Of a stretch of 64,000 nucleotides of DNA, positions 2,099 through 45,446 are shown piece after piece; positions within the stretch are counted from its first letter, which is position 1; each line of letters opens with the position of its first letter. The DNA is from Symbiobacterium sp. (GTDB lineage Bacteria; Bacillota; Sulfobacillia; UBA995; UBA9673): assembly GCA_020725405.1 (NCBI GenBank), contig DYFB01000037.1, positions 8,760-72,759 of the forward strand, given 5' to 3'. The notes under the pieces are model-generated. The model was not told where the DNA came from, made no database searches, and saw only the letters and a list, made by a program, of their open reading frames with translations. A program made the position numbers and the translations under genes.

Positions 2099-2368
2099 GG
2101 GTACCCTCCTTTGGTGGCCGGGCGCGGGGGTCCTTCTCTAATGACCGGCCGGGCAGGGGGAAGACTCGAAGAAGGATTCGCTCCGGGCCCGAGGCCGCCT
2201 GCCGCCGCTCCGAAGGAAGAATCCGCCAGGAGGCGCGGGCGGAGGGCCGCTCTGGCCCGCCTGGTCCTCTCCCGGACGGGAGGAAACCGGCGGGCCCCGT
2301 GTAATTGAAGGTCGTTCCGGCCCGAGGCAGGCCGGATGACCACCTGAGGCGCAGGAGGAGGCCGGCTC

Positions 2369-3493
2369 ATGGCGGAGGGAACCGGAGAACGAGGCGGAGG
2401 GCGGGATAAGGGGTGGCGTCTCGCCCGGCGCCTCGAGACGGTCAGGCGGAAGCTCGGCACCCTGGAGAGGCGGCCCGGGGCGGTGGTGGTCACGGGGGAG
2501 TGCAACCGGCGGTATCTCACCGGCTTCACCGGGTCGTCGGGAGCGGCGGTGGTCTCGGCGACCAGGGCCGTCCTCGTGACCGACTTCCGCTACCTCACGC
2601 AGGCTAAGGCCGAGTGCCCCGGCTGGGAGATAGTACGGCAGGGGCCCGTCCTGCTCGATACGGTGGCCGAGGTCGTGGTCGGGTTCGGGGAGGAGCGGGT
2701 GGGCTTCGAGCGCGACCACGCCACGTTCGCCCTCTACGAGGACTTGAGCTCCCGTCTGAAGGGCTTCGAACTCATCCCGGTGGCCGGCCTCGTGGACTCG
2801 GTGCGCGAGATAAAGGAGGAGGAGGAGATAGACGCCATCCGGGAGGCGGCCCTCCTGACCGACCGAGCCCTGGGTGAGATCCTCCCGTTCATCAAGCCGG
2901 GAGTCTCCGAGATGGATATCGCCCTCGAGCTGGAGTACCGGATGCGGAAGCTCGGCGCGGATGGCGTGGCCTTCCCGGCCATCGTCGCCTCCGGGCCGCG
3001 CTCGGCGCTTCCCCACGGCCGGGCCTCGAAGAAGAGGCTGGCCCCCGGGGAGCTGGTCACCGTCGACACCGGGGCCGTGGTCGGCGGGTACTGCTCGGAC
3101 CTCACCCGGACCTTCGCTCTCGGCCCGGTGATGGGCGAGCAGGAGAAGGTCTACCGTCTGGTCCTCGAGGCCCAGCTGGCGGCTCTGGAAGCCTGCCGCC
3201 CCGGACGGGCGGGCAAGGAGATAGACCAGGTGGCGCGGGACGTCATCTCCGCCCGCGGTCACGGGGACCACTTCGGCCACGGCCTGGGCCACGGGGTGGG
3301 TCTGGCCGTCCACGAAGGGCCTCGCCTTTCCCCAACGTCGGACCAGGTCATCGAGGCCGGTCACGTGGTGACGGTCGAGCCGGGGGTTTACATCGAGGGC
3401 TGGGGCGGCGTCAGGATAGAAGACCTCGTCGCGGTCAGGGCCGACGGGGTGGAGATCCTCTCGACCTTCCCCAAGGAGCTTCAGGTCTTGTGA
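2369..3493 (+). CDS. Xaa-Pro aminopeptidase (M24 family, YqhT/PapA-like)
   Basis: YLTGFTGS, TDFRY, DTGA..YCSDLTRT, HGLGHGVG..HEGP, TVEPGVY, GVRIED; directly upstream of efp. Confidence 0.93.
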   Translation: MAEGTGERGGGRDKGWRLARRLETVRRKLGTLERRPGAVVVTGECNRRYLTGFTGSSGAAVVSATRAVLVTDFRYLTQAKAECPGWEIVRQGPVLLDTVAEVVVGFGEERVGFERDHATFALYEDLSSRLKGFELIPVAGLVDSVREIKEEEEIDAIREAALLTDRALGEILPFIKPGVSEMDIALELEYRMRKLGADGVAFPAIVASGPRSALPHGRASKKRLAPGELVTVDTGAVVGGYCSDLTRTFALGPVMGEQEKVYRLVLEAQLAALEACRPGRAGKEIDQVARDVISARGHGDHFGHGLGHGVGLAVHEGPRLSPTSDQVIEAGHVVTVEPGVYIEGWGGVRIEDLVAVRADGVEILSTFPKELQVL

Positions 3494-10588: not shown

Positions 10589-11191
10589 ATGGTCTTGACG
10601 CGACGAGACGTCTTGAAGTTCGTGGTTTTCGTCGTTCTCATCGGCCTAGCCGTATCCTACGTGTCGGCCAACCGCGAGGCGCTTCTCGACGGGATTCTGG
10701 GGCGTTCCGGAGGAGGCGCGGCTGAGACGGTCCCGGTCGGCGGCACGGTCCCCGGCGGCGGAGAGGCGGTGCCTGTGGCCGCTCTCACAGGCCTCGAGTT
10801 CGATCTCGGGGCCCTCGGGTCCGGACGTTCGGGCGGAGGCGAGGACTACTTCGTCGAGTTCCGCCTGGCGAGGGAGCAGGCCCGCGGCGTGCAGCTGGAC
10901 CTCTTGCGCGAGATCCTGCGGAACCCGGATCTCGGCAAAGAGGCCCACGAGCGGGCGCTCGGGCTCTGGCTATCGATAACCGAGGCGGTGGGCCGCGAGG
11001 TGGACATCGAGAATCTGATCCGGGCCAAGGGGTACGCCGACGCCGTGGTCATCCTGAGCGAGGGGAAGGCGACCATCCTTGTGAAGGCCGACAGCCTGAC
11101 CCGCGAGGAGGTCATCTGCCTGGCCGACATCGCCGTGCGGGTCGCGGGTATCACTTACGAGGACATCACCGTCGTGTCCAAGGGCGGCTAG
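10589..11191 (+). CDS. spoIIIAH: Stage III sporulation protein AH
   Basis: YFVEFRLAREQ.R, IENLIRAKGYADAVV. Confidence 0.92.
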   Translation: MVLTRRDVLKFVVFVVLIGLAVSYVSANREALLDGILGRSGGGAAETVPVGGTVPGGGEAVPVAALTGLEFDLGALGSGRSGGGEDYFVEFRLAREQARGVQLDLLREILRNPDLGKEAHERALGLWLSITEAVGREVDIENLIRAKGYADAVVILSEGKATILVKADSLTREEVICLADIAVRVAGITYEDITVVSKGG

Positions 11192-11349
11192 AGGCAGGGA
11201 ATCCCCGGGGGTGGACGAATACGGGACCGGACGCCCGGCGGTCGGGAGCGCGGCTTCGCGCTCCGGCCGCCGCACCGGCTCTCGCCGCTGCCGACGGGCG
11301 GTTTCCCGTCCGACCGGGCGTCGCCCTTCGTGGTCGGGCGCGGGAGAAA

Positions 11350-11802
11350 GTGATAGACTGTGAGGCGAACTCGGGCCGGGACGGTCTGGAGGTGGCGAAG
11401 TCGAGCGAGCGGACGATAGGACCGTATGACGACGGCGAGGACTCCGGCCTCATCCGAATCTCGGACGACGTGGTCGGGACCATCGCCGGTATCGCCGCGA
11501 CCGAGGTCGAGGGCGTGGCCGGGATGAGCGGCGGGATCGTCGGTGGGATAACCGAGATGCTGGGGCGCAAGAACTTGGCCAAGGGGGTCAAGGTCGAGGT
11601 CGGCGAGCGCGAGGCCGCGCTCGACCTGTTCATCGTTGTTGACTATGGCGTGCGCATACCCGAGATCGCCCAGCGGGTCCAGGAGAACGTCAAGCGGGCT
11701 GTGGAGAGCATGACCGGTCTCACCGTGGTGGAGGCCAACATTCACATCCAGGGCGTGGCTTTCCGCCACGAGGCCCGGGAGGAGGAAGCGCGGGTAAGAT
11801 GA
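11350..11802 (+). CDS. Asp23/Gls24 family envelope stress protein (YqhY-like)
   Basis: IRISDDVVGTIAGIAATEVEGV, KNLAKGVKVEV, V.YGV.IPE, VESMTGL.V...NIHIQG; start uncertain. Confidence 0.92.
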   Translation: MIDCEANSGRDGLEVAKSSERTIGPYDDGEDSGLIRISDDVVGTIAGIAATEVEGVAGMSGGIVGGITEMLGRKNLAKGVKVEVGEREAALDLFIVVDYGVRIPEIAQRVQENVKRAVESMTGLTVVEANIHIQGVAFRHEAREEEARVR

Positions 11803-12341
11803 TGGGGCTCTTCGACCGCATAATCCTGACCGTGCTCACCCTGATTGTCGCCGCCCTGTCCGCGGTAGTCATTCTCCTCGCCGCGGGCTGGACGGTTCCT
11901 CTGGAACTCATCTGGGCGACCCTGACCGACGACGTGGGGCGCTGGCTGGTCGGGGGTCTCGCCGGACTGACCTTTGTCATCGCCGTCAGGTTCATCTACT
12001 ACGGGTTTCACCGCGCGGGAGCCGACCAGACCCTTGTTCACGAGAGCGACCTCGGCGAGGTCCGCATCTCTATCGAGGCCGTCGAGAATCTGGTAAGGAA
12101 GGTGGCCCGCCAGGTCAAGGGAGTCCGCGGCGTGCGGGGCTGGGTCGTTCCCGGAGGCGACCGCCTGAACGTCAGGCTCAGGACCATCATCAGCCCGGAC
12201 GTCAGCGTGCCGGACGTCTCGAGCGACATCCAGTCTGCCGTGCGCGACTGCCTGAAGAACGTGGTCGGGGTCGAGGCCGGCGAGGTCAGGGTTTTCGTGG
12301 AGAACATATCCAACGAAGCGCGGCGTGGGCGGGTGGAGTAG
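11799..12341 (+). CDS. amaP: Alkaline shock response membrane anchor protein AmaP-like
   Basis: Two N-terminal TMs, GEVRISIEAVENLV, between asp23 and DUF2273/nusB. Confidence 0.8.
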   Translation: MMGLFDRIILTVLTLIVAALSAVVILLAAGWTVPLELIWATLTDDVGRWLVGGLAGLTFVIAVRFIYYGFHRAGADQTLVHESDLGEVRISIEAVENLVRKVARQVKGVRGVRGWVVPGGDRLNVRLRTIISPDVSVPDVSSDIQSAVRDCLKNVVGVEAGEVRVFVENISNEARRGRVE

Positions 12342-12656
12342 ATGGCCGTCTTTCGGGGCCCCGGGAACGACGACGAGGCACGTGAGGAAGACGGGCGCCG
12401 CCCGCCCGCGACCGGCGGCGAGGCGCATGCTTTCTGGTGGGTCGTGCTGCAGTACTGGCGCCGGCATCGCGGTAAGCTGCTCGGCGTGGTCATCGGCCTC
12501 TCGGTGGGGCTCGGAATAAGGTACCTGGGATTTCTGTGGACCCTCTTCATCGCCATTTGCGGCGTGGTCGGGTACTTCATTGGTCGCAGGCTCGACGAGA
12601 GCAACGAGGACATCCTGGAACTCCTGGACCGGGTGCTCCCCCCCGGGAGGGGCTGA
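12342..12656 (+). CDS. DUF2273-like small membrane protein
   Basis: HRGKLLG...G...GFLWTLF....G.VGYFIGRRLD. Confidence 0.8.
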   Translation: MAVFRGPGNDDEAREEDGRRPPATGGEAHAFWWVVLQYWRRHRGKLLGVVIGLSVGLGIRYLGFLWTLFIAICGVVGYFIGRRLDESNEDILELLDRVLPPGRG

Positions 12657-12721
12657 GCTTCCGCCGGGGGCTCGCGTCACGGTAAGATGGGTTCCGCTTG
12701 GCGTACTGGGGGATTTGCTCT

Positions 12722-13216
12722 TTGAAGAACCGTCGTCAGGGGCGCGAGCTCGCCCTCAAGGTCCTCTTCCAGCTGGATGTCGCCGGGGGCGACCCGGACG
12801 AGGCCTTCGACCTCGCTGTGCAGCTGATGACCGAGGATCCCGAAGACCCCGACACCGGGGCTCCCACCGAGGACGTCAAGGTCTTCGCCAGGCGACTCCT
12901 CACCGGGGTCATTGCGAATCTGGAGGAGATCGACGCCAAGCTGCGGGCCTACGCCCGCGAGTGGTCCCTCGAGCGGATGGCCAATGTCGACCGGAACATC
13001 CTTCGCCTGGCGCTCCACGAGATGCTCTCTCTTGACGACGTTCCTCTGAGCGTCTCGATAAACGAGGCTGTGGAGCTGGCCAAGATTTACAGCACCCCGG
13101 ATTCCGGCCGGTTCATCAACGGCATTCTCGGCAAGATCGCCGTCGAGGGGGTCGCGTCCGGACCCGGAGGGGAGAAAGGAGGCACCCCACCCGCAGACCG
13201 CGAAAGCACACCATAG
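12722..13216 (+). CDS. nusB: Transcription antitermination factor NusB
   Basis: RRQGRELALKVLFQ, WSLERMANVDRNILRLA, INEAVELAK.YS, FINGIL. Confidence 0.97.
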   Translation: MKNRRQGRELALKVLFQLDVAGGDPDEAFDLAVQLMTEDPEDPDTGAPTEDVKVFARRLLTGVIANLEEIDAKLRAYAREWSLERMANVDRNILRLALHEMLSLDDVPLSVSINEAVELAKIYSTPDSGRFINGILGKIAVEGVASGPGGEKGGTPPADRESTP

Positions 13217-17773: not shown

Positions 17774-18052
17774 ATGACCGGAAGCGATGCGGCCGCCGGG
17801 GCGGCCGGGACCGAGATGTCGTTCGAGGACGCCCTCAGGCGTCTCGAGGAGGTTGTCGGGGAGCTCGAACGGGGCGGCCAGACCCTCAACGAGGCGCTTG
17901 GCCTCTTCGAGGAAGGCATCCGCCTCTCACGGACACTCACGGCCAAGCTGGACGCGGCCGAGGCCCGGATAGACCGGATAGTCGAGACCGCCTCCGGCGC
18001 GACGCGGCTCGAGCCGTTTGAGAACGACGAGGATGGGGGGTTAGAGCGGTGA
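17774..18052 (+). CDS. xseB: Exodeoxyribonuclease VII small subunit
   Basis: SFEDAL.RLEEVV.ELE.G..TL.EAL.LFEEG. Confidence 0.95.
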   Translation: MTGSDAAAGAAGTEMSFEDALRRLEEVVGELERGGQTLNEALGLFEEGIRLSRTLTAKLDAAEARIDRIVETASGATRLEPFENDEDGGLER

Positions 18053-18915
18053 CCGGAAGCATCGCCGAGGCGTACGGCCGCAGGCTGGCTTTGGTGAACT
18101 CCGGGCTCGAGGCCGTCCTCCCGCCCGCGGGTCGTGAACCCCGCCGGCTGCACGAGGCCATGAGGCACGCCGTCTTCGGCGGCGGCGGCGGGAAGCGGCT
18201 GCGGCCCGTTCTGCTTCTCTCGGCGGCCGCCGACCTCGGCGTGGCTGACGACCGCGCTCTTCCGGCGGCCCTGGCTCTCGAGCTGGTCCACTGCTACTCC
18301 CTCGTCCACGACGATCTCCCCTGCATGGATGACGCCGGCGAACGGCGCGGGGCGCCGTCGGTTCACGCCGCCTTCGGGTACGCCGTGGCCCTTCTGGCCG
18401 GCGACGCTCTCCTGACTCAGGCCTTTGAGATTCTCGGGCGGGCGGCGAACTCCGGTCTGCCCCGCCCGGGCGAGCTCCTGGTCGAACTGGCCACGGCCGC
18501 CGGGAGCGGCGGGATGGTCGGCGGGCAGGACCTCGACCTCGCTCTGGGCGAAGGCGGGGCCGGGCCGGCTGGTCCCGACCTGGTCTTGCGCGTTCATCGA
18601 ATGAAAACGGCGCCTCTTTACGGTTTCGCTCTGGTCGCCCCGGCCCATCTCGCCGGGGTCTCCGCGGCCGAAGTCCGGCGCTGGAGAGAAGCCGGGGTCA
18701 ACTTCGGCCTGGCCTTCCAGGCCGCGGACGACCTTCGGGACGCCAGCGAGGACCGGCGGGCCCCGAATCTGGCCAAGGCTGCGGGAACGGCCCGGGCCCG
18801 CGAGATGGCCCGGGAATCCCTGCGAGAGTGCGAGGCAGCCCTCATCGACCTCGCCGGCCTGGAGTCCGGGACCTTGGCCCTCGTCCGGGCCGCGGCGCGG
18901 GAGATGGGGCTCTAG
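18049..18915 (+). CDS. ispA: Farnesyl/geranylgeranyl diphosphate synthase
   Basis: GKRLRP, SLVHDDLPCMDD...RRG, GDALL, GGQ.LD, FQAADDLRD. Confidence 0.93.
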   Translation: MTGSIAEAYGRRLALVNSGLEAVLPPAGREPRRLHEAMRHAVFGGGGGKRLRPVLLLSAAADLGVADDRALPAALALELVHCYSLVHDDLPCMDDAGERRGAPSVHAAFGYAVALLAGDALLTQAFEILGRAANSGLPRPGELLVELATAAGSGGMVGGQDLDLALGEGGAGPAGPDLVLRVHRMKTAPLYGFALVAPAHLAGVSAAEVRRWREAGVNFGLAFQAADDLRDASEDRRAPNLAKAAGTARAREMARESLRECEAALIDLAGLESGTLALVRAAAREMGL

Positions 18916-18972: not shown

Positions 18973-19049
18973 GGAGCCGCTCGTCAGGACGACAGCCCGG
19001 GCAGCGGCCTGCGGCTCCGGACCCGACGGGCTGACAAGATGATAGCGTT

Positions 19050-19652
19050 GGGAGGCTGGTGGCGCAGTATCCTAGTCGGTGCCGTCGCTTATAAGGGCGG
19101 GGCTAAAAATCCGCCAAGGGCACATCGATGAAGTTCCTGGTGCTGGCCTGCGACGCCCAGTCGCGGGTTGGTGCTGGGAGTTAAGGAGCGGGGGCAGCCC
19201 GCAAAGGCATGTGGGTGGGACCCTCGCTTCGCGGAGACCCAAGGCTCGTGGTCTGGTCTAGTGGGCCGGCTACGACTTGGGGTGGAACCTGCATCCGGGC
19301 GCAGACTGGGTGCAGCGTAGCCTGCCTTGAGCGGCGGTGGCGGACGGTCGTCCACGAGGTCCGCGTCCATGGGCCCAGGACGGGACCTGGTTCGATACGA
19401 CCCAAAACCATCGTTCGCAAAAAAGGCTAAGAAGCGGTCAGCACCGCCGAGGAAAACTCCTAGGCTGTTCAGCATCCTGAGGCGAACCGGGGATTACAGT
19501 GTGCTCTAAGTGGTAATCCAGCTCCGTCCTGGGCAACCGGACGGGGGCCTCGTAAAGGGAAACCGCCCCGGCGGTAACGCTTGGGTGAGGCTTGGGAAAT
19601 CCTGCTGGACCTAAGACACAACGTTTACTCGGTCCGCTGCCACCTGACTCTC
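19050..19652 (+). ncRNA. ole: OLE (ornate, large, extremophilic) RNA, ~603 nt
   Basis: Between ispA and oapA-dxs; OLE-type blocks AAATCCGCCAAGGGCACATCGATGAAGTTCCTGGTGCTGGC, GCTGGGAGTTAAG, GGATTACAGTGTGCTCTAAGTGGTAATCC; terminal pairing ggtggc(19058-63)/gccacc(19639-44) and gggag/ctctc; several GNRA-capped hairpins; ends approximate. Confidence 0.92.
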
Positions 19653-19677
19653 AATCTCTTGAAAGGTGACCTGAGGC

Positions 19678-20295
19678 TTGCCACATCCGAACCGGAGAGA
19701 GGGCCTGGCCAGCGACGTGCGACGGCTGGCCGGGGTCTTCCTGACCACGTTCGTGCTGGCCGTAGCGTTCTCCCTCCTCTCCGACACCGTCCTGCGGAAG
19801 ACTACGATTCTCCTGGCGACGCTCGTCCTGGCGGTCATAATCCTCGTCGGCATCCTCGCCGACATCGTGGGGTTGGCCGTAGCTACGGCGGGGCGCGCGC
19901 CGCTGAACGCGATGGCGGCGAAGAAAGTGCCGGGGGCCCGCCAGGGACTCCGGCTCGTCAGGAACGCGCCCCGCGTCGCCACCATCTTCAACGACCTCGT
20001 CGGCGACATTTGCGGGACGGTGAGCGGCGCGGCCGGAGCGGCCATCGTCTTCCGGGTGGCCCTAAGCCGCCCCGGCGTCGACGAGGGGCTCTGGACGGTC
20101 CTCCTGGTCTCGGTCATCGCCGCCCTCACCGTCGGCGGCAAGGCCCTGGGGAAGCGCATCGCCCTGGTGAACTCGGACCGAATAGTCCACCAGCTTGGGA
20201 AGATTCTGTGGTGGCTTGAAGAACACCTGGGTCTCGTCGTACTGGCTGAGCCAGCGACCCGCCGGGCGCCGAGGAGGAGGACCAACTCTTCTTGA
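19678..20295 (+). CDS. oapA: OLE-associated membrane protein A
   Basis: 4 TM; GILADIVGLAV, AMAAKKVPGA, NDLVGDICG.VSG, ALTVGGKALGK; immediately downstream of ole. Confidence 0.9.
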   Translation: MPHPNRREGLASDVRRLAGVFLTTFVLAVAFSLLSDTVLRKTTILLATLVLAVIILVGILADIVGLAVATAGRAPLNAMAAKKVPGARQGLRLVRNAPRVATIFNDLVGDICGTVSGAAGAAIVFRVALSRPGVDEGLWTVLLVSVIAALTVGGKALGKRIALVNSDRIVHQLGKILWWLEEHLGLVVLAEPATRRAPRRRTNSS

Positions 20296-22436
20296 GCGAC
20301 GCGATAACGTCTGCTGCTGCGCCTGGTGAAAAAACCGCGGCCGCCGGCCCTAGCCCCGGCAGACCCGCCGGGGGGACAAGCCCGGGGCGGGGATCGGCCC
20401 CTCCGACCCCCGGACGACGCGCTTCCGATGAGGAAACCGCAGCCGGGGTTCTTGCCGGCCTGCGCGGTCCCGAGGACCTCAAGGCCCTGCCGGCCGCTAG
20501 GCTCCCCGAGCTCGCCGCGGAGATACGCCGGCGGATCATCGATACGGTGTCGCGGACAGGTGGGCACCTCGCACCGAACCTCGGAGTCGTGGAGCTGACC
20601 ATTGCTCTGCACCGCGTGTTCTCGAGCCCGCGCGACCGCATCATCTGGGATGTGGGGCACCAGACCTACGCCCACAAGCTTCTGACGGGCCGCGCCGAGC
20701 GATTCAACACCCTCCGGCAGGAGAACGGCCTCTCCGGGTTCCCGCGGCGCTCTGAGAGCCCTCACGATGTCTTCGAGACCGGCCACGCCAGTACCTCGGT
20801 CTCGGCTGCGCTCGGCATCGCGGCCGCGCGCGATCTCAAGCGGGACGACTACTCGGTCGTGGCCGTTATCGGCGACGGAGCCCTGACCGGGGGGATGGCC
20901 TTCGAGGCCCTGAACAACGCGGGCCACATGAAGACGCACCTCATCGTCGTCCTGAACGATAACGAGCTCTCCTACGGGCCGACCGTGGGTGGCCTGGCCT
21001 CCCATCTGAGCCGCCTCCGCTCCCATCCGGTCTACTTCCGGGTTAGGCGCGACCTCGAGTCCTTCGTGAAGAACCTTCCTCTCATTGGACCGGCCCTCTA
21101 CTACCTGGGCGGGCGGATCAAGGGCAGCGTGAAGTACCTCGTCGTCCCCGGCATCCTCTTCGAGGAGCTCGGCTTCACCTACCTCGGGCCCGTGGACGGG
21201 CACAACCTAGCCCAGCTCGAGGAGTTCCTGGAGCGGGCCAAGATGATCCGCGGGCCGGCGTTCGTCCACGTCATAACCAAGAAAGGGAAGGGCTACCCTC
21301 CGGCCGAGGCCGACCCGGACCGCTTCCACGGCATCGGGCCGTTTGACATTGCCACCGGCCTCGACCTGGCCGAGCCTCCGATCACTGGACCTAACGGCCC
21401 GTCGACAGCCGTCAACAACCACGGACCCTCGAGCGCCCTGAACAGCCACGCGCTGCCGCGTCCCACCTACACGCAGGTCTTCGGACAGACCCTGCTCGAG
21501 CTCGGAAGCCGTGACGACCGCATCGTGGCCATTACCGCGGCCATGGCGTCGAGCACGGGGGTCCTGCCCTTCGCCCGCTCCTTCCCCAAGCGCTGGTTCG
21601 ACGTCGGCATCTCCGAGCAGCATGCGGTGACCTTCGCCGCCGGCCTGGCCGCCGAGGGGCTTAGGCCGGTGGTGGCCGTCTACTCCACCTTCCTCCAGCG
21701 TGCCTATGACCAGATCCTGCACGATGTCTGTCTCCAGCGGCTGCCGGTGACGTTCGTCCTCGACCGCGGGGGGCTCGTCGGCGCCGACGGGCCGACCCAT
21801 CACGGCGCCTACGACCTCAGCTACCTTCGGGCCATGCCGGGGATGGTGGTCATGGCCCCGAAGGACGAGAACGAGCTCAGGCACATGCTCAAGACAGCCC
21901 TGTACCTCGGGGGCCCCGCGGCCGTCCGCTACCCGCGGGGCCCGGGCCCCGGGACGCTGGCGGAGGGCGAGCCGCGGCGTCTGGAGGTCGGGCGGGCGGA
22001 GATCCTGCGGGATGGCGGCGACCTGGCCATCGTCGCCATAGGCTCCATGGTCGTTCCCTCCCTGGAAGCGGCGGAGCGGCTGGGGACCGCGGGCCTCCGG
22101 GCGGCGGTCGTCAACGCCCGCTTCGCCGCACCGGTGGACGGGAACCTAATCGTCCGGCTGGCCCGCGAGACGGGGAGAATCCTGACCGTGGAGGAGAACG
22201 TGGCCAAGGGCGGCTTCGGGGCGGCGGTGGTCGAGACCTTGACCGGGGCGGGGCTGACCGTCGGCGTCAAGGGGGTCCGGGTCAGGCGACTGGCCCTCCC
22301 CGATGAGCCCGTGGAGCACGGCCGGGCCGAGACCCTCCGCCGCCGGTACGGGCTCGACGCCGAGGGCATCGCCCGGGCGGCGGCCGCCCTGGTCCGGGAC
22401 GAGGCCGGCGCGGTTGACGGAGGTCGGCGCGGCTGA
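20292..22436 (+). CDS. dxs: 1-deoxy-D-xylulose-5-phosphate synthase with N-terminal extension and linker insertion
   Basis: GGHLAPNLG, WDVGHQ.Y.HK, GDGALTGG, GISEQHA, YSTFLQRAYDQ..HDV, DGPTHHG. Confidence 0.97.
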   Translation: MSDAITSAAAPGEKTAAAGPSPGRPAGGTSPGRGSAPPTPGRRASDEETAAGVLAGLRGPEDLKALPAARLPELAAEIRRRIIDTVSRTGGHLAPNLGVVELTIALHRVFSSPRDRIIWDVGHQTYAHKLLTGRAERFNTLRQENGLSGFPRRSESPHDVFETGHASTSVSAALGIAAARDLKRDDYSVVAVIGDGALTGGMAFEALNNAGHMKTHLIVVLNDNELSYGPTVGGLASHLSRLRSHPVYFRVRRDLESFVKNLPLIGPALYYLGGRIKGSVKYLVVPGILFEELGFTYLGPVDGHNLAQLEEFLERAKMIRGPAFVHVITKKGKGYPPAEADPDRFHGIGPFDIATGLDLAEPPITGPNGPSTAVNNHGPSSALNSHALPRPTYTQVFGQTLLELGSRDDRIVAITAAMASSTGVLPFARSFPKRWFDVGISEQHAVTFAAGLAAEGLRPVVAVYSTFLQRAYDQILHDVCLQRLPVTFVLDRGGLVGADGPTHHGAYDLSYLRAMPGMVVMAPKDENELRHMLKTALYLGGPAAVRYPRGPGPGTLAEGEPRRLEVGRAEILRDGGDLAIVAIGSMVVPSLEAAERLGTAGLRAAVVNARFAAPVDGNLIVRLARETGRILTVEENVAKGGFGAAVVETLTGAGLTVGVKGVRVRRLALPDEPVEHGRAETLRRRYGLDAEGIARAAAALVRDEAGAVDGGRRG

Positions 22437-22451: not shown

Positions 22452-23324
22452 GTGGGGGCTCGGGGAGACGGACCTGACCGGCGCAGGCTCGACGCCCTCC
22501 TCGTCGAACGAGGCCTGGCGGCGAGCCGGACCGAGGCCCAGGCGCTCGTAGTGGCCGGACGCGTCCGCGCCGGAGGTCGGGCCGCGGACAAGCCCGGACG
22601 CCGCTACCCGGCCTCGGTCGACCTCGAGGTCGAGCGTCCCCCGCACCGCTACGTCTCCCGCGGCGGCCTCAAGCTGGAGAAAGCCCTCGACCAGTTCGGA
22701 CTCGACGTGACCGGCCTCTCGTGCCTCGACGTCGGGGCGTCGACCGGCGGATTCACCGACTGCCTCCTCCAGCGCGGGGCCGGGCGGGTCTACGCCGTGG
22801 ACGTAGGCTACGGTCTTCTGGCCTGGAAGCTCAGGAGCGACGACCGGGTCGTCCCCCTCGACCGCACCAACGCACGCTATCTCGACCGCGAGTCTTTCCG
22901 GCGGGCGGTCGAGGCCCAGGGGCGCGACCTGGTCTGGCCGGCTCTGGCCACGATCGACGTCTCCTTCATCTCCCTCCTTAAGGTCGCCCCCGCCGTGGTC
23001 GGGCTTCTGGAGCCTCCCTGGCAGATCATCGCTCTCGTCAAGCCGCAGTTCGAGGCTGGGCGGACAAAGGTCGGGTCGGGAGGGGTGGTCCGGGACCCGG
23101 AGACCCACGTCGGGGTCCTGGAGAAGGTGACGGCCGGCCTGGCGGCGATAGGACCGGCCGACGTCGCCGGCCTCACGCCCTCGCCCGTCCGCGGCCCGGA
23201 GGGGAACGTCGAGTACCTCCTCTGGCTCGTCGGCCCCTCCGACCGGCCCGAAGGGGGGCACCCCGCACCCGAGGCGATCCGGAAGGCCGTCTCGGACGGT
23301 CTGGCCGTCGGGCCCGTCCCCTAG
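22452..23324 (+). CDS. tlyA: TlyA/YqxC family RNA methyltransferase
   Basis: RLDALLV, YVSRGGLKLEKAL, DVGASTGGFTDCLLQ, DVSFISL, LVKPQFE, GNVEYL. Confidence 0.95.
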   Translation: MGARGDGPDRRRLDALLVERGLAASRTEAQALVVAGRVRAGGRAADKPGRRYPASVDLEVERPPHRYVSRGGLKLEKALDQFGLDVTGLSCLDVGASTGGFTDCLLQRGAGRVYAVDVGYGLLAWKLRSDDRVVPLDRTNARYLDRESFRRAVEAQGRDLVWPALATIDVSFISLLKVAPAVVGLLEPPWQIIALVKPQFEAGRTKVGSGGVVRDPETHVGVLEKVTAGLAAIGPADVAGLTPSPVRGPEGNVEYLLWLVGPSDRPEGGHPAPEAIRKAVSDGLAVGPVP

Positions 23325-25087
23325 CCGGGGTCGCTCTCCGGCCTCCGGCCGGCGGCCGCCTGGGCGCGGGCCCGGCGGAGCTCGTCCTTGGTCCTCCGCC
23401 CCTGGTCCAGCATCTCGCGGGCGTGGGCCAGGGTTATGGGGGTCGGCGGGTGGCCGGCGAGCATCCGGGCGACCTCGTGGACCCGGCCGTCGGGGTCGAG
23501 GGTCCTGACCAGGGTTGCGGTCCGGTTACCGGAGGTCTCTTTCAGGATGAGATGGTGGGCGTCGGTCAGGCTGGCTATCCGCGCGAGGTGGGTGACGCAG
23601 ACCACCTGTCGCGAGAGGGCTATGGTCGCGAGTTTCTCGCCGACGGCCTGGGCCGCGCCGCCTCCAACGCCGCTGTCTATCTCGTCGAAGATCATCGTCG
23701 GGATCTCGTCGCTCTCGGCCAGGATGGCCTTCAGGGCGAGCATGACCCGCGACATCTCTCCGCCGGAGGCGATGCGGCTGAGCGGGCGGGGTGTTTCGCC
23801 CGGGTTCGCCGAGAAGAGGAACTCCACCCGTTCGGCCCCGCGGGGACCGGGAGGGTCCTCGGGCTCGAAGGCCACGGAGAACCGGGCGTCCTTCATCCCG
23901 AGCTCGGCCAGGGCCGCCTCGACCGTCGCCTCGAGGTTTCCGCAGACGGTCCGGCGGGCCGCCGAGAGGCGCCCGGCCAGTTCGTCGAGGCGCGCGCGAG
24001 CGCGCCCGGCTTCCTCCTCGAGCCGGGCCAGGAGTTCGGCGGCGTTCTCGAGCCGGCCGAGCTCCTCGCGGCAGCGCGCGACGAAGGCCAGGATGTCGGC
24101 GACAGAGGCCCCGTACTTGCGTTTGAGGGCGCTGATGAGGTCGAGACGGCTCTCGACCTCGGCCAGGCGAGTCGGGTCGGCGAGGACTCCGTCGCGATAC
24201 CGGCGCACGTCACGGCTCACGTCGTCGAGCTGGTAGGCCGCCTGACGCACGGTCTCGAGCAGCGGGGAGACCGAAGGGTCGAGGGCTGCGAGTTCCTCGA
24301 GGGCGGCCAGGGCCCGGCCGATCTGGTCGTGGGCCGAGCTCTGGCCGGCGCCCTCGGCCGAATAGAGGGAGGCGTAAGCCCGGCCGGCCGCCTCGCGGCG
24401 CTTCTCGGCCCCGGCGAGGAGCCTCCTCTCCGCCTGGAGCTCCTCCTCTTCGCCTTCCCGCAGACGGGACCGTTCTATCTCCTCGACCTGGAAGGCGAGA
24501 AGGTCCAGGCGGCGGGCCCGGTCCCGCTCGTCGCCGGCGAGGGACCTCATCTCCTCCACGGTCTTCCGCCACTCCCGGTGGGCCCGGGCGACCTCGGCCC
24601 TGAGAGAGGCGGTCTCCCGGCCTCCGAAAGCGTCCAAGAGGTCGACGTGACGTTCGGGCCGGAGGAGGGACTGGTGCTCGTGCTGGCCGTGGATGTCGAT
24701 GAGGTGCTGGGTTATCTCGCGGAGGACGGACAGGGTCACCGTCCGGCCGTTGACGCGGCAGGTGGCCCGGCCGTCGACCGGCACCTCTCTCGAGACGACC
24801 AGGGTCGCCTCCTGGGGGTCGCCGAGGCCGAGCTCGTCCACCAGCCGGCGCACCCCGGGAAGGCGGGAGAGGTCGAAGACGACCTCGACGACGGCGCGGT
24901 CGGCTCCGGTCCGGATGACGTCGGCCGAGGCCCGGCCGCCGAGGGCGAGCTCAACGGCGTCGATGAGGATGGACTTGCCCGCCCCGGTCTCCCCGGTGAG
25001 GACGTTGAGCCCCGCGGAGAGAGCGAGCCGTACACTGTCTATTAGCGCGAAGTTGCGGATGGAGATCTCTGCGAGCAAAGCGCCCAC
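23321..25087 (-). CDS. recN: DNA repair protein RecN (inverted relative to neighbours)
   Basis: I.NFALI, TGETGAGKSILI, HGQHEHQ, ASGGEMSR.MLALK, FDEIDSGVGG, THL. Confidence 0.97.
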   Translation of the reverse strand: MGALLAEISIRNFALIDSVRLALSAGLNVLTGETGAGKSILIDAVELALGGRASADVIRTGADRAVVEVVFDLSRLPGVRRLVDELGLGDPQEATLVVSREVPVDGRATCRVNGRTVTLSVLREITQHLIDIHGQHEHQSLLRPERHVDLLDAFGGRETASLRAEVARAHREWRKTVEEMRSLAGDERDRARRLDLLAFQVEEIERSRLREGEEEELQAERRLLAGAEKRREAAGRAYASLYSAEGAGQSSAHDQIGRALAALEELAALDPSVSPLLETVRQAAYQLDDVSRDVRRYRDGVLADPTRLAEVESRLDLISALKRKYGASVADILAFVARCREELGRLENAAELLARLEEEAGRARARLDELAGRLSAARRTVCGNLEATVEAALAELGMKDARFSVAFEPEDPPGPRGAERVEFLFSANPGETPRPLSRIASGGEMSRVMLALKAILAESDEIPTMIFDEIDSGVGGGAAQAVGEKLATIALSRQVVCVTHLARIASLTDAHHLILKETSGNRTATLVRTLDPDGRVHEVARMLAGHPPTPITLAHAREMLDQGRRTKDELRRARAQAAAGRRPESDPG

Positions 25088-25107
25088 GCTCCCTCCGGAG
25101 GTCTCCG

Positions 25108-25986
25108 TCAGGCGTGGAGGCCGCCTTCGGGCAGCTTCCGGCGGAGGACCTCGAAGAAGTTCCAGTCCCTGCGTCTCACCAGGCGGGCGACCACGGGGGC
25201 CCGCCGGACGGTTATCGGATGATGGGGGTCGAGGGTGTAGACCTCCTGACCGTCCACGGTCATCACCGACTCGCGGACGGCGAGGTGGTTCTCCTGGTAG
25301 CGGACCTCTATCGTCGCCTCCGGAGCGACCACCACCGGACGCGAGTAGAGCGTGTGCGGGCAGACGGGTGTCAGGACGAGAAGGCTCAGGGACGGGTCGA
25401 CGATGGGCCCGCCGGCGGACAGGGAGTAGGCCGTGGAGCCCGTCGGAGTGGCCACGATGAGGCCGTCACCGGAGAAGGAAGCCAGGCGGGAGCTGTCGAC
25501 GAAGGCCTCGACGTGGACGAGCCGGGCGTAGGAGGTCTTGTGGAAGGTCAGCTCGTTGAGGGCGATGACCACGCGCCTTTCCCCGCCGCGGAGGGTCACC
25601 GCGGCCTCGACCATCGCCCTCTCGTCGAGCTTACTCTCGCCGGAGATGATGGCGGGGAGCTCGGCCTCGATCTCCCGCGGTTCCAGCTCCGTGAGGAAAC
25701 CCAGGCGGCCGAAGTTCACCCCGAGGAGCGGGGTACCGGCCGGAGCGAGAAGGCGGGCCGCCCGGAGGAGGGTCCCGTCTCCGCCCAGGACGACCGCGAG
25801 GTCGAGCCGGGCGGCGTCCTCCGGGAGGCGAACCGCGTGGGCGTCAAGGCCAAGCTCGCCGGCGATGTCGGCGTCGACAAGACACTCGACTCCGGCCCGG
25901 GAGATGGTCTGGAAGAGCTTGACGCCGGTATCGGCCGCCCCCGGCTTGTCCAGGTTGGCCATGATGACCACCGTGCGCCGGCTCAC
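25108..25986 (-). CDS. nadK: NAD+ kinase (inverted relative to neighbours)
   Basis: LGGDGT.L, GVNFGRLGFL, LNE, GDGLIVATPTGSTAYSLSAGGP, CPHTL..RP; GTG start after GGAGGGG. Confidence 0.96.
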   Translation of the reverse strand: MSRRTVVIMANLDKPGAADTGVKLFQTISRAGVECLVDADIAGELGLDAHAVRLPEDAARLDLAVVLGGDGTLLRAARLLAPAGTPLLGVNFGRLGFLTELEPREIEAELPAIISGESKLDERAMVEAAVTLRGGERRVVIALNELTFHKTSYARLVHVEAFVDSSRLASFSGDGLIVATPTGSTAYSLSAGGPIVDPSLSLLVLTPVCPHTLYSRPVVVAPEATIEVRYQENHLAVRESVMTVDGQEVYTLDPHHPITVRRAPVVARLVRRRDWNFFEVLRRKLPEGGLHA

Positions 25987-26065
25987 CGGTCCACCACCCC
26001 TCCGGCAGTCTAGACCCGGTCGGACCTGGCCGTCATCGGCTACGCTGCCCGCCGGACCTTTCCCT

Positions 26066-26090
26066 ATTCGCGCCCCCGGACGGGCTTCCT
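26066..26090 (-). promoter_or_regulatory. Candidate sigma-H-like promoter pointing into nadK-recN
   Basis: Minus strand caAGGAagc-N-cgcGAATag with 17 nt between AGGA and GAAT, same spacing as candidates at xerD and spoIIA. Confidence 0.4.
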
Positions 26091-26099
26091 TGTCCGCGG

Positions 26100-26129
26100 G
26101 CATAGGACCCTCCGGCGGCGGACAAGTTA
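26100..26129 (+). promoter_or_regulatory. Sigma-F/sigma-G promoter of spoIVB
   Basis: GCATA-N15-GGACAAGTTA. Confidence 0.75.
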
Positions 26130-26130
26130 G

Positions 26131-26164
26131 CCGGGTAGTCGGAGCTTCCGGGTAGTCGGAGCTT
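26131..26164. repeat. Perfect 2 x 17-bp tandem duplication in spoIVB leader
   Basis: ccgggtagtcggagctt twice. Confidence 0.9.
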
Positions 26165-26182: not shown

Positions 26183-27634
26183 GTGCCTAGGCGCCCCACC
26201 CGTCCCGCGGCGGCCCTCGTCCTCTCGGTCCTCGTCCTGGTTGTCGCCTTCAGCCCCCCCGTCCGCAGTCTGACAAGCCTGCCGGGGGAGATGCGCCTCC
26301 TCCTCGGGGAGGAGGAGCGGGTGGAGATAATCGGTCTACCCATCCCGGCCGTCATCCGAGCCGACCGCGACGGGCTCATCCACATCAACGACGAGGTGGC
26401 GCGGGGCGGCGAGTGGCGGGTCAACCTGGCCGCCCCCCTGGCCCTGAGGCCGCTCACCGAAGGGCGCTGCCAGCTCGATCTCGCTCTCTTCGGGTTGTTC
26501 TCGCTGAGGCGCATCGCCGTGGAGGTGGTCCCGCGGGTGGAGGTCGTCCCCGGGGGGGAGTCAATCGGCATCCTTCTCCGGACGCGAGGGGTGACGGTGG
26601 TCGGACACGCCCCCGTCGACTCCGCCGCCGGCCCCCGCTACCCCGCCCGGGACGCGGGGGTCCGCGTTGGCGATACCATCGTCCGCATCGACGGGGTCGA
26701 GGTCAAGAGCAACCAGCACATTGTCTTCCTGGTGAACCGCTGCGCCCGGGAGGGCCGTCCGGTCCCGGTGGAGGTCGTCCGGGGAGGAGAGGTCCTGAGC
26801 CTCGAGGTCACGCCGGGCTACAGCGAGCGCGAGCGGGTCTACCAGCTCGGGCTCTTCGTGCGCGACGGGGCCGCGGGCGTCGGGACCCTCACTTTCCTCG
26901 AACCCGAGTCGGGGATATTCATGGCTCTCGGGCACGTCGTCGCCGATTCGGCCACGAACCGACCTCTTGAGGTGAGCGACGGGCGGATTGTCAGGGCCTC
27001 GGTGGCCCGCATCATCCCTGGCCGGCGAGGTGAGCCGGGCGAGAAGGAGGGTACCTTCGTCGACAACCGCGACGTCATCGGGACGATAACCGCCAACACG
27101 GAGTTCGGGATAGTCGGGGTGCTCACGGCGACGGATAACGCTCTCGGCGGGAGAGTGCCGGTAGCCCTGGCGCGGGAGGTGCGGCCGGGTCCGGCCGAGA
27201 TCCGGACCGTCGTGGACGGGCAGCGCGTGGAGCGCTTCACCGTGGAGATAGTCAGGGTGGACAGGACCCAGACCTCGCCGGCCGGGAAGGGGATAACGCT
27301 GCACATCACCGACCCCCGGCTCCTGGAAGCCACCGGGGGCATCATCCAGGGGATGAGCGGGAGCCCCATCCTTCAGGACGGCCGGCTGGTGGGAGCGGTC
27401 ACCCATGTCTTCGTCAACGACCCCAGCCGGGGCTACGGGGTCTTCGCCGAGTGGATGGTCAGGGCGGCCGAACTGCTCCCGACCCCTGAAGGGGCCGGAG
27501 AGAGCGCTCTCCCGGCAACGGGACTGGCGGCTTGTTGTTCGACAAAACGAGAATCTAATTACAAATCTGGAAGGAACGGCCAGGGGGAAGGTCGAAAGGG
27601 AGAACCCGCAGGGGGGAGGGAGGACCATAACTAA
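26183..27634 (+). CDS. spoIVB: SpoIVB serine peptidase (PDZ + S55); C-terminus reads through the spo0A promoter
   Basis: PGGESIGI, GLFVRDGAAGVGTLTF, ALGH, GGIIQGMSGSPILQDG.LVGAVTHVFVNDP. Confidence 0.96.
   Translation: MPRRPTRPAAALVLSVLVLVVAFSPPVRSLTSLPGEMRLLLGEEERVEIIGLPIPAVIRADRDGLIHINDEVARGGEWRVNLAAPLALRPLTEGRCQLDLALFGLFSLRRIAVEVVPRVEVVPGGESIGILLRTRGVTVVGHAPVDSAAGPRYPARDAGVRVGDTIVRIDGVEVKSNQHIVFLVNRCAREGRPVPVEVVRGGEVLSLEVTPGYSERERVYQLGLFVRDGAAGVGTLTFLEPESGIFMALGHVVADSATNRPLEVSDGRIVRASVARIIPGRRGEPGEKEGTFVDNRDVIGTITANTEFGIVGVLTATDNALGGRVPVALAREVRPGPAEIRTVVDGQRVERFTVEIVRVDRTQTSPAGKGITLHITDPRLLEATGGIIQGMSGSPILQDGRLVGAVTHVFVNDPSRGYGVFAEWMVRAAELLPTPEGAGESALPATGLAACCSTKRESNYKSGRNGQGEGRKGEPAGGREDHN
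27538..27597 (+). promoter_or_regulatory. Spo0A box and sigma-H-type spo0A promoter
   Basis: TTCGACA (reverse complement TGTCGAA) at 27538-44; AGGA(27572)-N18-GAAA(27594) with overlapping GGTCGAA 0A-like box. Confidence 0.7.
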
Positions 27635-27649
27635 GGGAGGACGAGAGCC

Positions 27650-28414
27650 TTGTCCAGGGTGAAAGTGCTGCTGGCGGATGACAACAAGGAGTTCTGCGAG
27701 CTGTTCAGGGACTACATAGGGGGGCACGATGACCTCGACCTCGTGGGAGTGGCCCTCAACGGGCTGGAGGTCTTCGACCTCATCGAGGAGACCCGCCCGG
27801 ATGTCCTGGTTCTCGACATCATCATGCCTCATCTCGACGGCATCGGTGTCCTGGAGAGATTGGTCCGCGACGAGGCGGGACGGCCGAAGGTGATCTTGCT
27901 CACGGCCTTCGGCCAGGAGTCCGTTACCCAGAGGGTGGTCGAACTCGGGGCGGACTACTACGTTCTGAAGCCGTTCAACCTCGATGTCCTGGCCGATAGG
28001 ATCCGGCAGGTCGCCCTATCCTCGCGGCGTGTCCCGCCGGCCCCGGCGAGGGTCCGGAACCTCGAGGTCGAGGTGACCAACATCATCCACGAGGTCGGCA
28101 TCCCGGCCCACATCAAGGGCTACTTCTATCTCCGTGACGCCATTCTCATGGTCGTGCACCGCGTCGACTATCTCGGGGCCATCACCAAGGAGCTCTACCC
28201 GGCGGTGGCGGCCAAGTACGGCACTACCCCGAGCCGGGTCGAGCGGGCTATCCGTCACGCTATCGAGGTCGCCTGGAACCGGGGGAACATCGAAGCCATC
28301 ACCCGCCTCTTCGGCTACACGGTGAGTCACGAGCGCGGTAAGCCCACCAACTCGGAGTTCATCGCCATGATAGCCGACAAGCTGCGCATGGAGCTGCGGC
28401 TGACCGGGTCCTGA
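27650..28414 (+). CDS. spo0A: Sporulation master regulator Spo0A
   Basis: [55 protein letters not shown]. Confidence 0.99.
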
Positions 28415-28502: not shown

Positions 28503-28528
28503 AGGAATCGTCCGGCCCGGCCACGAAT
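28503..28528 (+). promoter_or_regulatory. Candidate sigma-H promoter for the amino-acid dehydrogenase/oxidoreductase operon
   Basis: ggAGGAATc-N-cacGAATa, 18 nt between AGGA and GAAT. Confidence 0.55.
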
Positions 28529-28609: not shown

Positions 28610-29710
28610 ATGGGCATATTCGATAAGATGGCGCAGCACCGCCACGAACAGGTGGTCTTCTGCCACGATAGGGTCTCAGGGCTGAAGAGCATAATCGCCA
28701 TCCACGACACAACCCTGGGACCGGCCCTCGGCGGCACGAGAATGTGGCCCTACAAGTCGGAAGAGGAGATGCTGGAAGACGTCCTGAGACTCTCTCGGGG
28801 CATGACCTACAAGTCCGCGGCCGCCGGAAGCAACTTCGGCGGGGGGAAAGCTGTAATCTGGGGGGACCCGGCAACCGATAAGGGCGAGCTGCTCTTCAGG
28901 GCGCTGGGTCTTTTCGTGCACTCCCTGGCCGGTCGGTTCATCACCGGGACCGACGTGGGCACGGTGGCCGACGACTTCGTCCACGCCCGGAGCGTGACGC
29001 CCTACCTGGTCGCCCTCCCGGAGGAGCACGGCGGCAGCGGGGACTCCTCGCTGACCACGGCCTTCGGGGTCTGGCACGGGATGCGGGCCTGCGCCGAGGA
29101 GGTCTTCGGGTCGCCCTCTCTGAAGGGGCTCAGGGTCGCGGTCCAGGGCGTCGGCAAGGTCGGCTACCGCCTCTGCGGCTACCTCAGCGAGGAGGGCGCC
29201 GAAGTCATCGTCAGCGACGTCTCCGAGGCCAACCTCAACCGGGTCAAACGCGAGCACAAGGTCGAGGTGGTCTCTCCTGAGGAGATCATCGACACCGAGT
29301 GCGACATCTTCTCCCCCAACGCTCTCGGCGGAGTCGTTAACGACGAGACCGTAGGCAGGTTCAGGACCAGGATAGTGGCTGGGGCCGCCAACAACCAGCT
29401 GGCCGAAGACCGCCACGGAGACGAGCTCCACCGCCGGGGGATTCTCTACGCCCCGGACTACGTCATCAACGCCGGCGGCCTCATCCAGGTGTCGGAGGAG
29501 TTCCCGAGCTTCAGCCGCGAGCGGGCCATGAGGCGCGCCGCGGCCATCTACGACAGCCTGAGGCGCATCTTCGCCATCTGCCGGCGGGACGGAATCGCGC
29601 CCCACAAGGCGGCTGACGTGCTGGTGGAGGAGCGGCTGGCCGAGATATCCGGCTGCCGCCTCTACCTTCCGGAGCCCGGCGGGACGGCCGGGGCCCTCGA
29701 CCGCTCCTGA
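28610..29710 (+). CDS. Glu/Leu/Phe/Val dehydrogenase, phenylalanine-dehydrogenase-like
   Basis: GMTYK, GGGKAVI, but TGTDVG / DDFVHA / GGSGDSS / NAGGLIQV as in Bacillus PheDH rather than LeuDH TAEDVG. Confidence 0.8.
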   Translation: MGIFDKMAQHRHEQVVFCHDRVSGLKSIIAIHDTTLGPALGGTRMWPYKSEEEMLEDVLRLSRGMTYKSAAAGSNFGGGKAVIWGDPATDKGELLFRALGLFVHSLAGRFITGTDVGTVADDFVHARSVTPYLVALPEEHGGSGDSSLTTAFGVWHGMRACAEEVFGSPSLKGLRVAVQGVGKVGYRLCGYLSEEGAEVIVSDVSEANLNRVKREHKVEVVSPEEIIDTECDIFSPNALGGVVNDETVGRFRTRIVAGAANNQLAEDRHGDELHRRGILYAPDYVINAGGLIQVSEEFPSFSRERAMRRAAAIYDSLRRIFAICRRDGIAPHKAADVLVEERLAEISGCRLYLPEPGGTAGALDRS

Positions 29711-29782: not shown

Positions 29783-30868
29783 ATGGAAGTCTTCGTAGGC
29801 ATGCAGAAGCACGGGTTCGAGCAGGTGGTGTTCTGCTACAATGAGAGCGCGGGGCTGAAGGCCATCATCGCCATCCACGACACCACCCTCGGCCCGGCTC
29901 TCGGTGGTCTCCGGATGTGGCCCTACGCCACCGAGGAGGACGCCGTGTTCGACGTTCTTCGTCTGGCCCGGGGGATGACCTACAAGGCGGCGGCCGCAGG
30001 CCTGAACCTGGGCGGAGGCAAGGCCGTGATCATCGCCGACCCCCGGCGCGACAAGTCCGAGGCCCTCTTCCGGGCCTTCGGACGCTTCGTCCAGTCCCTG
30101 GGCGGGCGCTATATAACGGCCGAGGACGTCGGGACCACCGTCGAGGACATGGACTATATCCACATGGAGACCGACTACGTCACGGGCGTTTCGACGGCCT
30201 ACGGCTCGAGCGGCGATCCGTCTCCGGCGACGGCCTTCGGGGTCTGGCGGGGGATGAAGGCCTGCGCCAAGGAGGCTTTCGGGAGCGAGAGCCTGGCCGG
30301 GAAGCGGGTGGCCATCCAGGGTGTCGGCCACGTCGGCCAGAACCTCGCCCGGCACCTCTATGACGAGGGGGCGAGGCTGGTCGTCTCCGATATCAACGAG
30401 GAGGCGGTCGCCAGGGCCCGGGCCGAGTTCCGGGCCGAGGCGGTCGACCCTGAAGCCATTTACGACGTGGAGTGTGATATATTCTCACCGTGCGCCCTCG
30501 GCGCCGTCCTGAACCCGGAGACCATCCCGCGCCTGAAGACGCGGGTCGTCGCCGGAGCCGCCAACAACCAGCTGCTCAGCGATTCGGACGGCGACACCCT
30601 GCACGAGAGGGGCATTCTCTACGCCCCGGACTACGTGATCAACGCCGGCGGGCTCATCAACGTGGCCGACGAGCTCGAGGGCTACAACCGCGACCGGGCC
30701 TTCAAGAAGATCACCGGCATCTACGCGAACATCGAGAAGGTTATCGGTATCTCGAAGCGCGACCGCATCCCGACCTATCGAGCGGCCGACCGGCTCGCCG
30801 AGGAGCGCATCGGTCTTATCGGACAGCAGAAGCGGATGCACCTGCCCTGCTGCGACGCTCCGGCCTGA
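29783..30868 (+). CDS. bcd: Leucine (branched-chain amino acid) dehydrogenase
   Basis: [63 protein letters not shown]. Confidence 0.92.
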
Positions 30869-45421: not shown

Positions 45422-45446
45422 AGGAATCTCAGGCAGGGCGTAGAAT
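45422..45446 (+). promoter_or_regulatory. Candidate sigma-H promoter upstream of xerD
   Basis: aaAGGAatc-N11-gtaGAAT, close to consensus. Confidence 0.55.

Follow-up and report, generated by a model that had tools for sequence, protein, structure and literature searches.

Comparison with known gene neighborhoods

In Bacillus subtilis, dxs, yqxC, ahrC, and recN form a single predicted operon (PMC3686787), and ole and oapA are often found adjoining dxs (PMC10898510). The locus described here lies in the window, by which we mean the whole 64-kb stretch of DNA analysed. Compared with the canonical Bacillota neighborhood, dxs-tlyA(yqxC)-[nadK]-argR(ahrC)-recN-spoIVB-spo0A, it has the same genes and flanks except for argR, including ole-oapA 5' of dxs. 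It differs in that nadK and recN, together with their promoter, are found on the other strand in the window's family, from which argR is missing. Invertible elements such as hin, fimS, and the invertons of Bacteroides and Clostridioides likewise consist of a short segment of differing orientation with a promoter near one end. Unlike these systems, nadK-recN has no flanking inverted repeats and no recombinase among the neighboring genes scanned, and was seen in a single orientation throughout. Its promoter also travels with its genes, such that nothing would be switched.

Gene identities were assigned by Pfam and gave the order dxs(+) tlyA(+), recN(-) nadK(-), spoIVB(+) spo0A(+). Within the block, nadK is upstream of recN, and the 20-bp gap between them does not hold argR. 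The parts of the locus are as follows.

19043..19659, + strand: OLE RNA (Rfam RF01071, 465 bits, full length), which opens the conserved ole-oapA-dxs-tlyA stretch
20292..22436, + strand: dxs (Pfam DXP_synthase_N, Transket_pyr, Transketolase_C), left flank, outside the inverted block
22452..23324, + strand: tlyA-type rRNA methyltransferase (S4 + FtsJ; Pfam), left flank
23321..23324: junction A, where the inverted block begins on its left side; the TAG stops of tlyA(+) and recN(-) overlap here and spell CTAG, read from the sequence
23321..25087, - strand: recN (Pfam SMC_N, AAA_23), within the inverted block
25108..25986, - strand: nadK, NAD kinase (Pfam NAD_kinase, NAD_kinase_C), within the inverted block
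26010..26013: second CTAG, read from the sequence, in the nadK 5' leader between promoter and Shine-Dalgarno sequence; not a breakpoint
26066..26090, - strand: sigma-H-like nadK-recN promoter (-35 AGGA at 26090-26087, N17, -10 GAAT at 26069-26066)
26091..26099: junction B, the probable breakpoint on the right, in the gap that separates the divergent promoters of nadK and spoIVB
26100..26129, + strand: putative spoIVB promoter of forespore type (sigma-F/G-like), GCATA-N15-GGACAAGTTA, beyond the inverted block
26183..27634, + strand: spoIVB (Pfam Peptidase_S55, PDZ), right flank, outside the inverted block
27650..28414, + strand: spo0A (Pfam Response_reg, Spo0A_C), right flank

The genes scanned, from ~18.0 to 30.9 kb, were ispA, dxs, tlyA, recN, nadK, spoIVB, spo0A, and two ELFV dehydrogenases. 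One further ORF, between ispA and dxs, had no Pfam match and is the one called oapA in the original prediction. A generic sigma-70 promoter scan found none, and a terminator scan gave one terminator-like site, at chance level. The GC skew profile showed no discontinuity. Coding-strand GC3 skew was negative for all family genes on either strand and gives no age signal.

Gene order across the family, sister family, and class

The original prediction, made from the sequence of the window, held that nadK-recN is turned around compared with the order usual in Bacillota and left three readings open: a fixed rearrangement, a switch, or an artefact. Synteny with loci of the sister family and class confirmed the flip. 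The canonical order in these relatives is dxs-tlyA-nadK-argR-recN-spoIVB-spo0A, and all five sister-family genomes were collinear with it. Loci from eleven other families of the class were compared; seven were fully collinear, and three were incomplete yet consistent. In the class-family locus L046, nadK-recN was co-oriented with dxs-tlyA, but spoIVB-spo0A was flipped.

Within the window's GTDB family, all four informative genomes were inverted (the window's own and G002, G003, and G004), in a GTDB order represented by only 10 species genomes. G002-G004 belong to three other genera, with proteins 64-85% identical by tblastn synteny, and showed recN(-)nadK(-) followed by spoIVB(+), tlyA converging on recN, or both. 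Indeed, tlyA was convergent with recN wherever a family genome or contig spanned the tlyA-recN junction. A fifth family genome, G001 (81% complete), had no match to nadK, recN, or tlyA and was not counted for orientation. Metagenomes extended the pattern. A 61-kb marine-sediment contig carried the complete inverted layout, and five further metagenome lineages were all inverted, one of which was recovered in a single orientation from six samples, with contigs as long as 371 kb. The recN of relatives was 40-72% identical to that of the window.

In the nadK tree, the inverted rows formed one clade (100/100 support), and a single change of orientation was needed. The derived order is common to this clade while the outgroups keep nadK-recN in canonical orientation, which is the pattern of a fixed inversion. 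The outgroup locus L044 has argR between nadK and recN. No argR was found in any of the five family genomes, and the gene has been lost in this family.

The junctions and their CTAG sites

At junction A, tlyA(+) and recN(-) were confirmed to end in one CTAG at 23321-24, with a 2-base overlap of both TAG codons. Because overlapping convergent TAG stops must spell CTAG, this tetranucleotide needs no special origin. The same 4-bp overlap of the two genes was present in L072 and L080, while the gaps in other lineages were 15, 39-43, 59, and 83 bp. The spacing of recN and tlyA among inverted lineages thereby ranged from -4 to +83 bp.

As predicted, a second CTAG, at 26010-13, shortly precedes the GGAGGGG Shine-Dalgarno of nadK. 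It is unique to the window's species, with no equivalent in L034, L056, L072, L078, or L081; L079 and L080 had one CTAG each, only on the spoIVB side. As it falls between the conserved nadK promoter and the Shine-Dalgarno, this CTAG is inside the moved unit. The proposal of a block "precisely inverted between two CTAG sites" could therefore not be upheld. It is true that no base is lost when the segment is flipped in silico, but this holds for any imagined flip and is not diagnostic. CTAG is scarce in the window (37 observed in 64 kb versus 178 expected from base composition), and at this density a 196-bp spacer contains one ~11% of the time. A third CTAG occurs at 26187. We considered CTAG as a special recombination site and rejected it, as the first is forced by TAG overlap and the second is species-specific and inside the moved unit.

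The position of junction B was approximated from promoter positions. The putative spoIVB promoter block was conserved in the window, L034, L056, and L072-L081, and similar motifs were present in outgroups L041, L044, L048, and L049. In the window's species it is back-to-back with the nadK promoter, 9 nt apart. As each of the two promoters is ancestral to its own gene, we infer that the break fell between them, placing the 26010 CTAG ~80 bp inside the right-hand breakpoint. In L034 and L056 the junction B spacer exceeded that of the window by ~100 nt. Mean column identity at this junction was 62%. Judged by gene spacing, spacer length, and column identity, both junctions have diverged since the inversion.

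A promoter-like element accompanies nadK in both gene orders

The minus-strand AGGA-N17-GAAT element pointing into nadK exists as predicted, beside the spoIVB promoter. Its placement outside the segment did not stand, however, since canonical genomes also have the element ahead of nadK. Of 20 loci, inverted and canonical, 13 carried AGGA-N16-18-GAAT at 65-137 nt upstream of nadK, against a background of 0.011-0.017 per 330 nt. These include 10 of the 17 loci in which nadK is co-oriented downstream of tlyA/dxs. Three of four further inverted lineages also had the motif upstream of nadK, and it remained beside nadK where inserted genes separate tlyA from nadK. Its extended consensus is rGAGGA...GCGAATA, with cores 17-18 nt apart. 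Presence of the motif in both inverted and canonical genomes indicates an ancestral nadK promoter that was carried inside the block, and a promoter within the moved block means that orientation leaves promoter control unchanged. The idea that the two orientations would place nadK and recN under different control was not supported, as the motif accompanies nadK in both orders.

The element resembles the sigma-H (Spo0H) promoters of endospore formers. The B. subtilis sigma-H consensus is RnAGGAwWW-N11-12-RnnGAAT, from which the nadK element differs by at most one base. A sigH gene was found in the window's genome (TIGR02859, 384.6 bits versus a cut-off of 294.8) and in three relatives. Both cores are conserved at consensus spacing in front of orthologous nadK genes and sigH is present, which makes AGGA-N17-GAAT a candidate sigma-H promoter. 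A literature search for regulation of nadK or recN by sigma-H returned nothing relevant.

A broader proposal is that rGAGGA-N-GCGAATA is a genuine sigma-H promoter, that nadK(-argR)-recN is a conserved transition-state unit throughout a class of high-GC endospore formers, and that the inversion created compact divergent promoters. We offer this tentatively, as a reading that could well be wrong. If true, the nadK-recN and spoIVB promoters, only 9 nt apart here, might couple or interfere in expression.

Origin of the inversion

Taken together, the flip of nadK-recN is very probably a single ancient inversion, fixed in the common ancestor of an uncultured family of high-GC Bacillota. Of the options left open by the original prediction, it is the fixed rearrangement that the data bear out: every informative member of the family clade is inverted and the junctions have diverged. 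The ancestral order would have been dxs-tlyA, P(sigH-like)-nadK-argR-recN, P(forespore)-spoIVB-spo0A. Of these three units, the central one would then have been inverted between two points, the left one in the short gap past the tlyA stop and the right one in the gap from the recN stop to the spoIVB promoter. Loss of argR would be a second change in the same family. In the present state, nadK and recN would form an operon of two genes, encoded on the strand opposite to their neighbors and read from its own AGGA-N17-GAAT promoter, with transcription running head-on into the end of tlyA.

The window's genome is a MAG in 97 contigs and the junctions are short palindromes, features that would suit a chimeric join or mis-orientation during assembly. 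We nonetheless regard an assembly artefact as scarcely conceivable. Three other same-species assemblies from other sources repeat both the order and the junction sequences (GCA_020725165.1, JGI 3300029892, and Logan SRR13164376). They matched the window at 99.66-99.86% DNA identity, gapless and collinear over one or both junctions. These contigs were reached via a 99%-identical nadK cluster, P0001, whose gene calls use a longer nadK start; an exact-sequence search with the window's nadK and recN gave no match. Further, the order recurs with different junction sequences in many relatives from ENA, JGI, NCBI, and Logan, with contigs reaching 371 kb. The suggestion of a chimeric read is thus set aside by independent assemblies of different origin, and the assembly of the MAG is correct here.

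Alternatively, the block could be an active invertible segment, alternating between read-through from ole-oapA-dxs-tlyA and the sigma-H promoter. Two palindromic CTAGs do bracket nadK and recN in the window's species, and a promoter-like element faces nadK. Yet a repeat scan bore out the earlier observation that the flanks have nothing in common but a 4-bp palindrome, with no long inverted repeat; longer inverted pairs were 70-83% GC-rich noise, away from the boundaries. Nor was there a recombinase or transposase among the genes scanned from ~18.0 to 30.9 kb, in agreement with the reported lack of an adjacent invertase. Only one orientation was seen in four same-species assemblies and ~8 other lineages, including six samples of one lineage. 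The 26010 CTAG is not conserved, and a flip between the CTAGs would part nadK from its own promoter instead of restoring the ancestral state. The original prediction had named relatives sharing the orientation with diverged junctions as grounds against a switch, and this is what we found. With no inverted repeats, no recombinase among the genes scanned, and a single orientation among assemblies, a switch is extremely unlikely.

We also considered what brought about the original break. Some IS families target CTAG-like sites, and an ancient inversion could have been made by a transposase at such targets, with the CTAG at the tlyA stop as a remnant. That tlyA ends in C-TAG in most family lineages, and that the 4-bp stop overlap is kept in three, would agree with such an origin. 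At 70% GC, however, a C is often expected before a TAG stop, and the convergent overlap spells CTAG by necessity. In none of the lineages examined did either junction contain an IS, transposase, or terminal-repeat remnant, and junction B has no conserved CTAG. Microhomology inversion from CTAG to CTAG likewise fails, as the 26010 site is species-specific and ~80 bp within the probable breakpoint. A transposase is therefore a very unlikely cause. The single fixed inversion is an ordinary, ancient event; a literature search on nadK-recN inversion returned nothing relevant.

Significance

With the candidate DNA switch removed, the locus has little significance beyond housekeeping. A by-product of modest value is the class-conserved promoter-like element tied to nadK, which appears from its sequence to be sigma-H dependent. 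Together, the nadK-recN inversion and argR loss mark this uncultured family cleanly at the level of synteny.

Conservation of the nadK-recN inversion

The inversion of nadK and recN is real, and is an old, fixed, family-wide rearrangement of the ordinary kind. The window derives from an 88.6-kb contig of a metagenome-assembled genome (97 contigs, 95% complete). Pfam matches agreed with the original gene calls throughout the locus:

18049-18915, +, ispA (Pfam)
19043-19659, full-length OLE RNA (Rfam RF01071, 465 bits), upstream of a 212-aa ORF and dxs
20292-22436, +, dxs (Pfam)
22452-23324, +, tlyA-type S4/FtsJ methyltransferase (Pfam)
23321-25087, -, recN (Pfam)
25108-25986, -, nadK (Pfam)
26100-26129, conserved spoIVB promoter block, GCATA-N15-GGACAAGTTA
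26183-27634, +, spoIVB (Pfam)
27650-28414, +, spo0A (Pfam)

The 212-aa ORF between OLE RNA and dxs had no Pfam match and is presumably oapA. Beyond spo0A lie two ELFV (Glu/Leu) dehydrogenase paralogues in tandem (28610-29710 and 29783-30868).

Up to 17 kb around nadK was taken from 20 related species genomes, and the window's proteins were placed by tblastn. The comparison with the closest genomes, a check proposed in the original prediction, revealed the informative members of the window's GTDB family (5 species genomes, 4 genera) to be inverted and the sister family canonical. Within the family, two contigs of G003 cover the locus, one with recN(-) nadK(-) spoIVB(+) spo0A(+) and the other with dxs(+) tlyA(+) recN(-); G002 and G004 carry nadK(+) recN(+) tlyA(-), and the locus is absent from G001. 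The sister family, the only other family of the order, is collinear in each of its five genomes, with the order dxs-(tlyA)-nadK-argR-recN-spoIVB-spo0A. Loci from 11 further families of the class were wholly collinear (7), incomplete yet consistent (3), or partly flipped (1). The single complete genome among these class-level relatives (G030:C1, one contig, 3,566,135 bp) is in the collinear group. The partly flipped locus (L046, from G011) has a separate local inversion (11082-13188): spoIVB and spo0A run opposite to recN there, and nadK-recN is still co-oriented with dxs-tlyA.

A 61-kb marine-sediment contig (OSAF01000046) holds the complete inverted layout on one molecule. Protein searches revealed 21 more nadK clusters at 61-69% identity, with the next matches at ≤51%. 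All five of the clusters for which contexts were fetched were inverted, reading spo0A(-) spoIVB(-) nadK(+) recN(+) tlyA(-) dxs(-); one of these lineages was found in 6 samples, on contigs of 120-371 kb. In a maximum-likelihood nadK tree, the 8 inverted rows formed one clade with 100/100 support and a long stem, such that one change of orientation suffices. In one lineage of the family (L072-L077), a 735-aa PD40/peptidase-S9 (tricorn-like) gene lies between spoIVB and spo0A on the opposite strand (1200-3407).

The nadK-recN gap is ~500 bp and encodes ArgR in outgroups; it spans 20-128 bp in the window's family (25087-25108 in the window). The ArgR C-terminal domain (ArgR_C, PF02863) was matched in none of the 5 family genomes (G000-G004), while control genomes gave matches. 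Loss of the arginine repressor thus seems to be family-wide, and joins the inversion as a second change that sets the family apart at this locus.

Assembly, switching, and the CTAG sites

Three additional contigs of the same species were reached through cluster P0001 (99% identity): GCA_020725165.1 (DYFP01000009.1, 23.6 kb), JGI 3300029892, and Logan SRR13164376. These were 99.66-99.86% identical to the window in gap-free alignment, with the first covering both junctions and the others the nadK-spoIVB junction. As these independent assemblies are collinear with the window and none has the opposite orientation, the chimeric read or misassembly originally offered as an alternative is ruled out. 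The same uniformity leaves a DNA switch unsupported. As had been noted, no inverted repeat beyond the 4 bp of CTAG flanks the block. No recombinase or transposase was found among the neighbouring genes scanned. Moreover, relatives within the family share the orientation with diverged junctions. In the window's species and in lineages L072 and L080, recN and tlyA end in a shared 4-bp CTAG; in the remaining lineages their stops are 15, 39-43, 59, or 83 bp apart. A CTAG within the nadK leader is confined to the window's species: none occurs between spoIVB and nadK in L034, L056, L072, L078, or L081, and L079 and L080 have a single CTAG beside or within the spoIVB promoter.

The block had been described as bounded by two CTAG sites. 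The one at 23321-24 comprises the overlapping stops of tlyA and recN and needs no special cause, since convergent TAG stops overlapping by 2 bases must spell CTAG. The other (26010-13) lies 6 bases upstream of the nadK Shine-Dalgarno GGAGGGG, and a third is at 26187. CTAG is under-represented in the window (37 versus 178 expected from base composition), and at this density the chance of at least one in the 196-bp intergenic spacer is ~11%. That flipping loses no base is uninformative, being true of every imagined inversion. With one site forced by stops and the other species-specific, a CTAG mechanism is unsupported.

A promoter-like element moves with nadK

A minus-strand element, AGGA(26090-87)-N17-GAAT(26069-66), is present in the window and kept across the family. 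Of 17 loci with nadK co-oriented downstream of tlyA/dxs, 10 also have it, at 65-137 nt upstream of nadK, among them all five sister-family genomes. The extended consensus is rGAGGA-N13/14-GCGAATA. The core pattern has a background of 0.017 per 330 nt over 706 kb of strand sequence (0.011 without nadK sites), and AGGA-N16-18-GAAT has two other matches in the 64-kb window, 28503-28528(+) and 45422-45446(+). The former falls between spo0A and the first ELFV dehydrogenase paralogue.

Several class-level relatives (L037, L039, L041, and L049) have 1-2.6 kb of extra DNA separating tlyA from nadK, marking this boundary as a recurrent site of change. Where other genes intervene (L037, L039, and L049), the element still adjoins nadK; it starts 22 nt after the tlyA stop in L044 and 8 nt after it in L051. 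As the element adjoins nadK in canonical, inverted, and gene-separated loci, we infer that it is the ancestral nadK promoter, carried within the inverted block. The right breakpoint would then lie on the spoIVB side of 26090 rather than at 26010, and promoter positions place it putatively within the 9 nt preceding the spoIVB promoter block.

Flipping 23325-26009, as originally envisaged, would thus detach nadK from its promoter and not restore the ancestral state. Nor would orientation place nadK-recN under different control, as the same promoter would serve both. The sigma-H-like promoter predicted to face nadK is a real element, but its linkage to nadK in canonical loci is at odds with a location outside the moved unit. 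A sigma-H gene in the genome (TIGR02859, 384.6 bits) makes sigma-H-like a reasonable, if putative, label.

In the present arrangement, nadK-recN would form a bicistronic unit read leftwards from its own promoter, divergent from spoIVB-spo0A and meeting tlyA head-to-head at its end. The convergent tlyA/recN junction revealed no convincing intrinsic terminator. In the spoIVB leader, just past the forespore-type -10, is a perfect 17-bp tandem duplication (CCGGGTAGTCGGAGCTT x2, 26131-26164); this unit is present in one copy in the relatives L034 and L056 and in two in the window.
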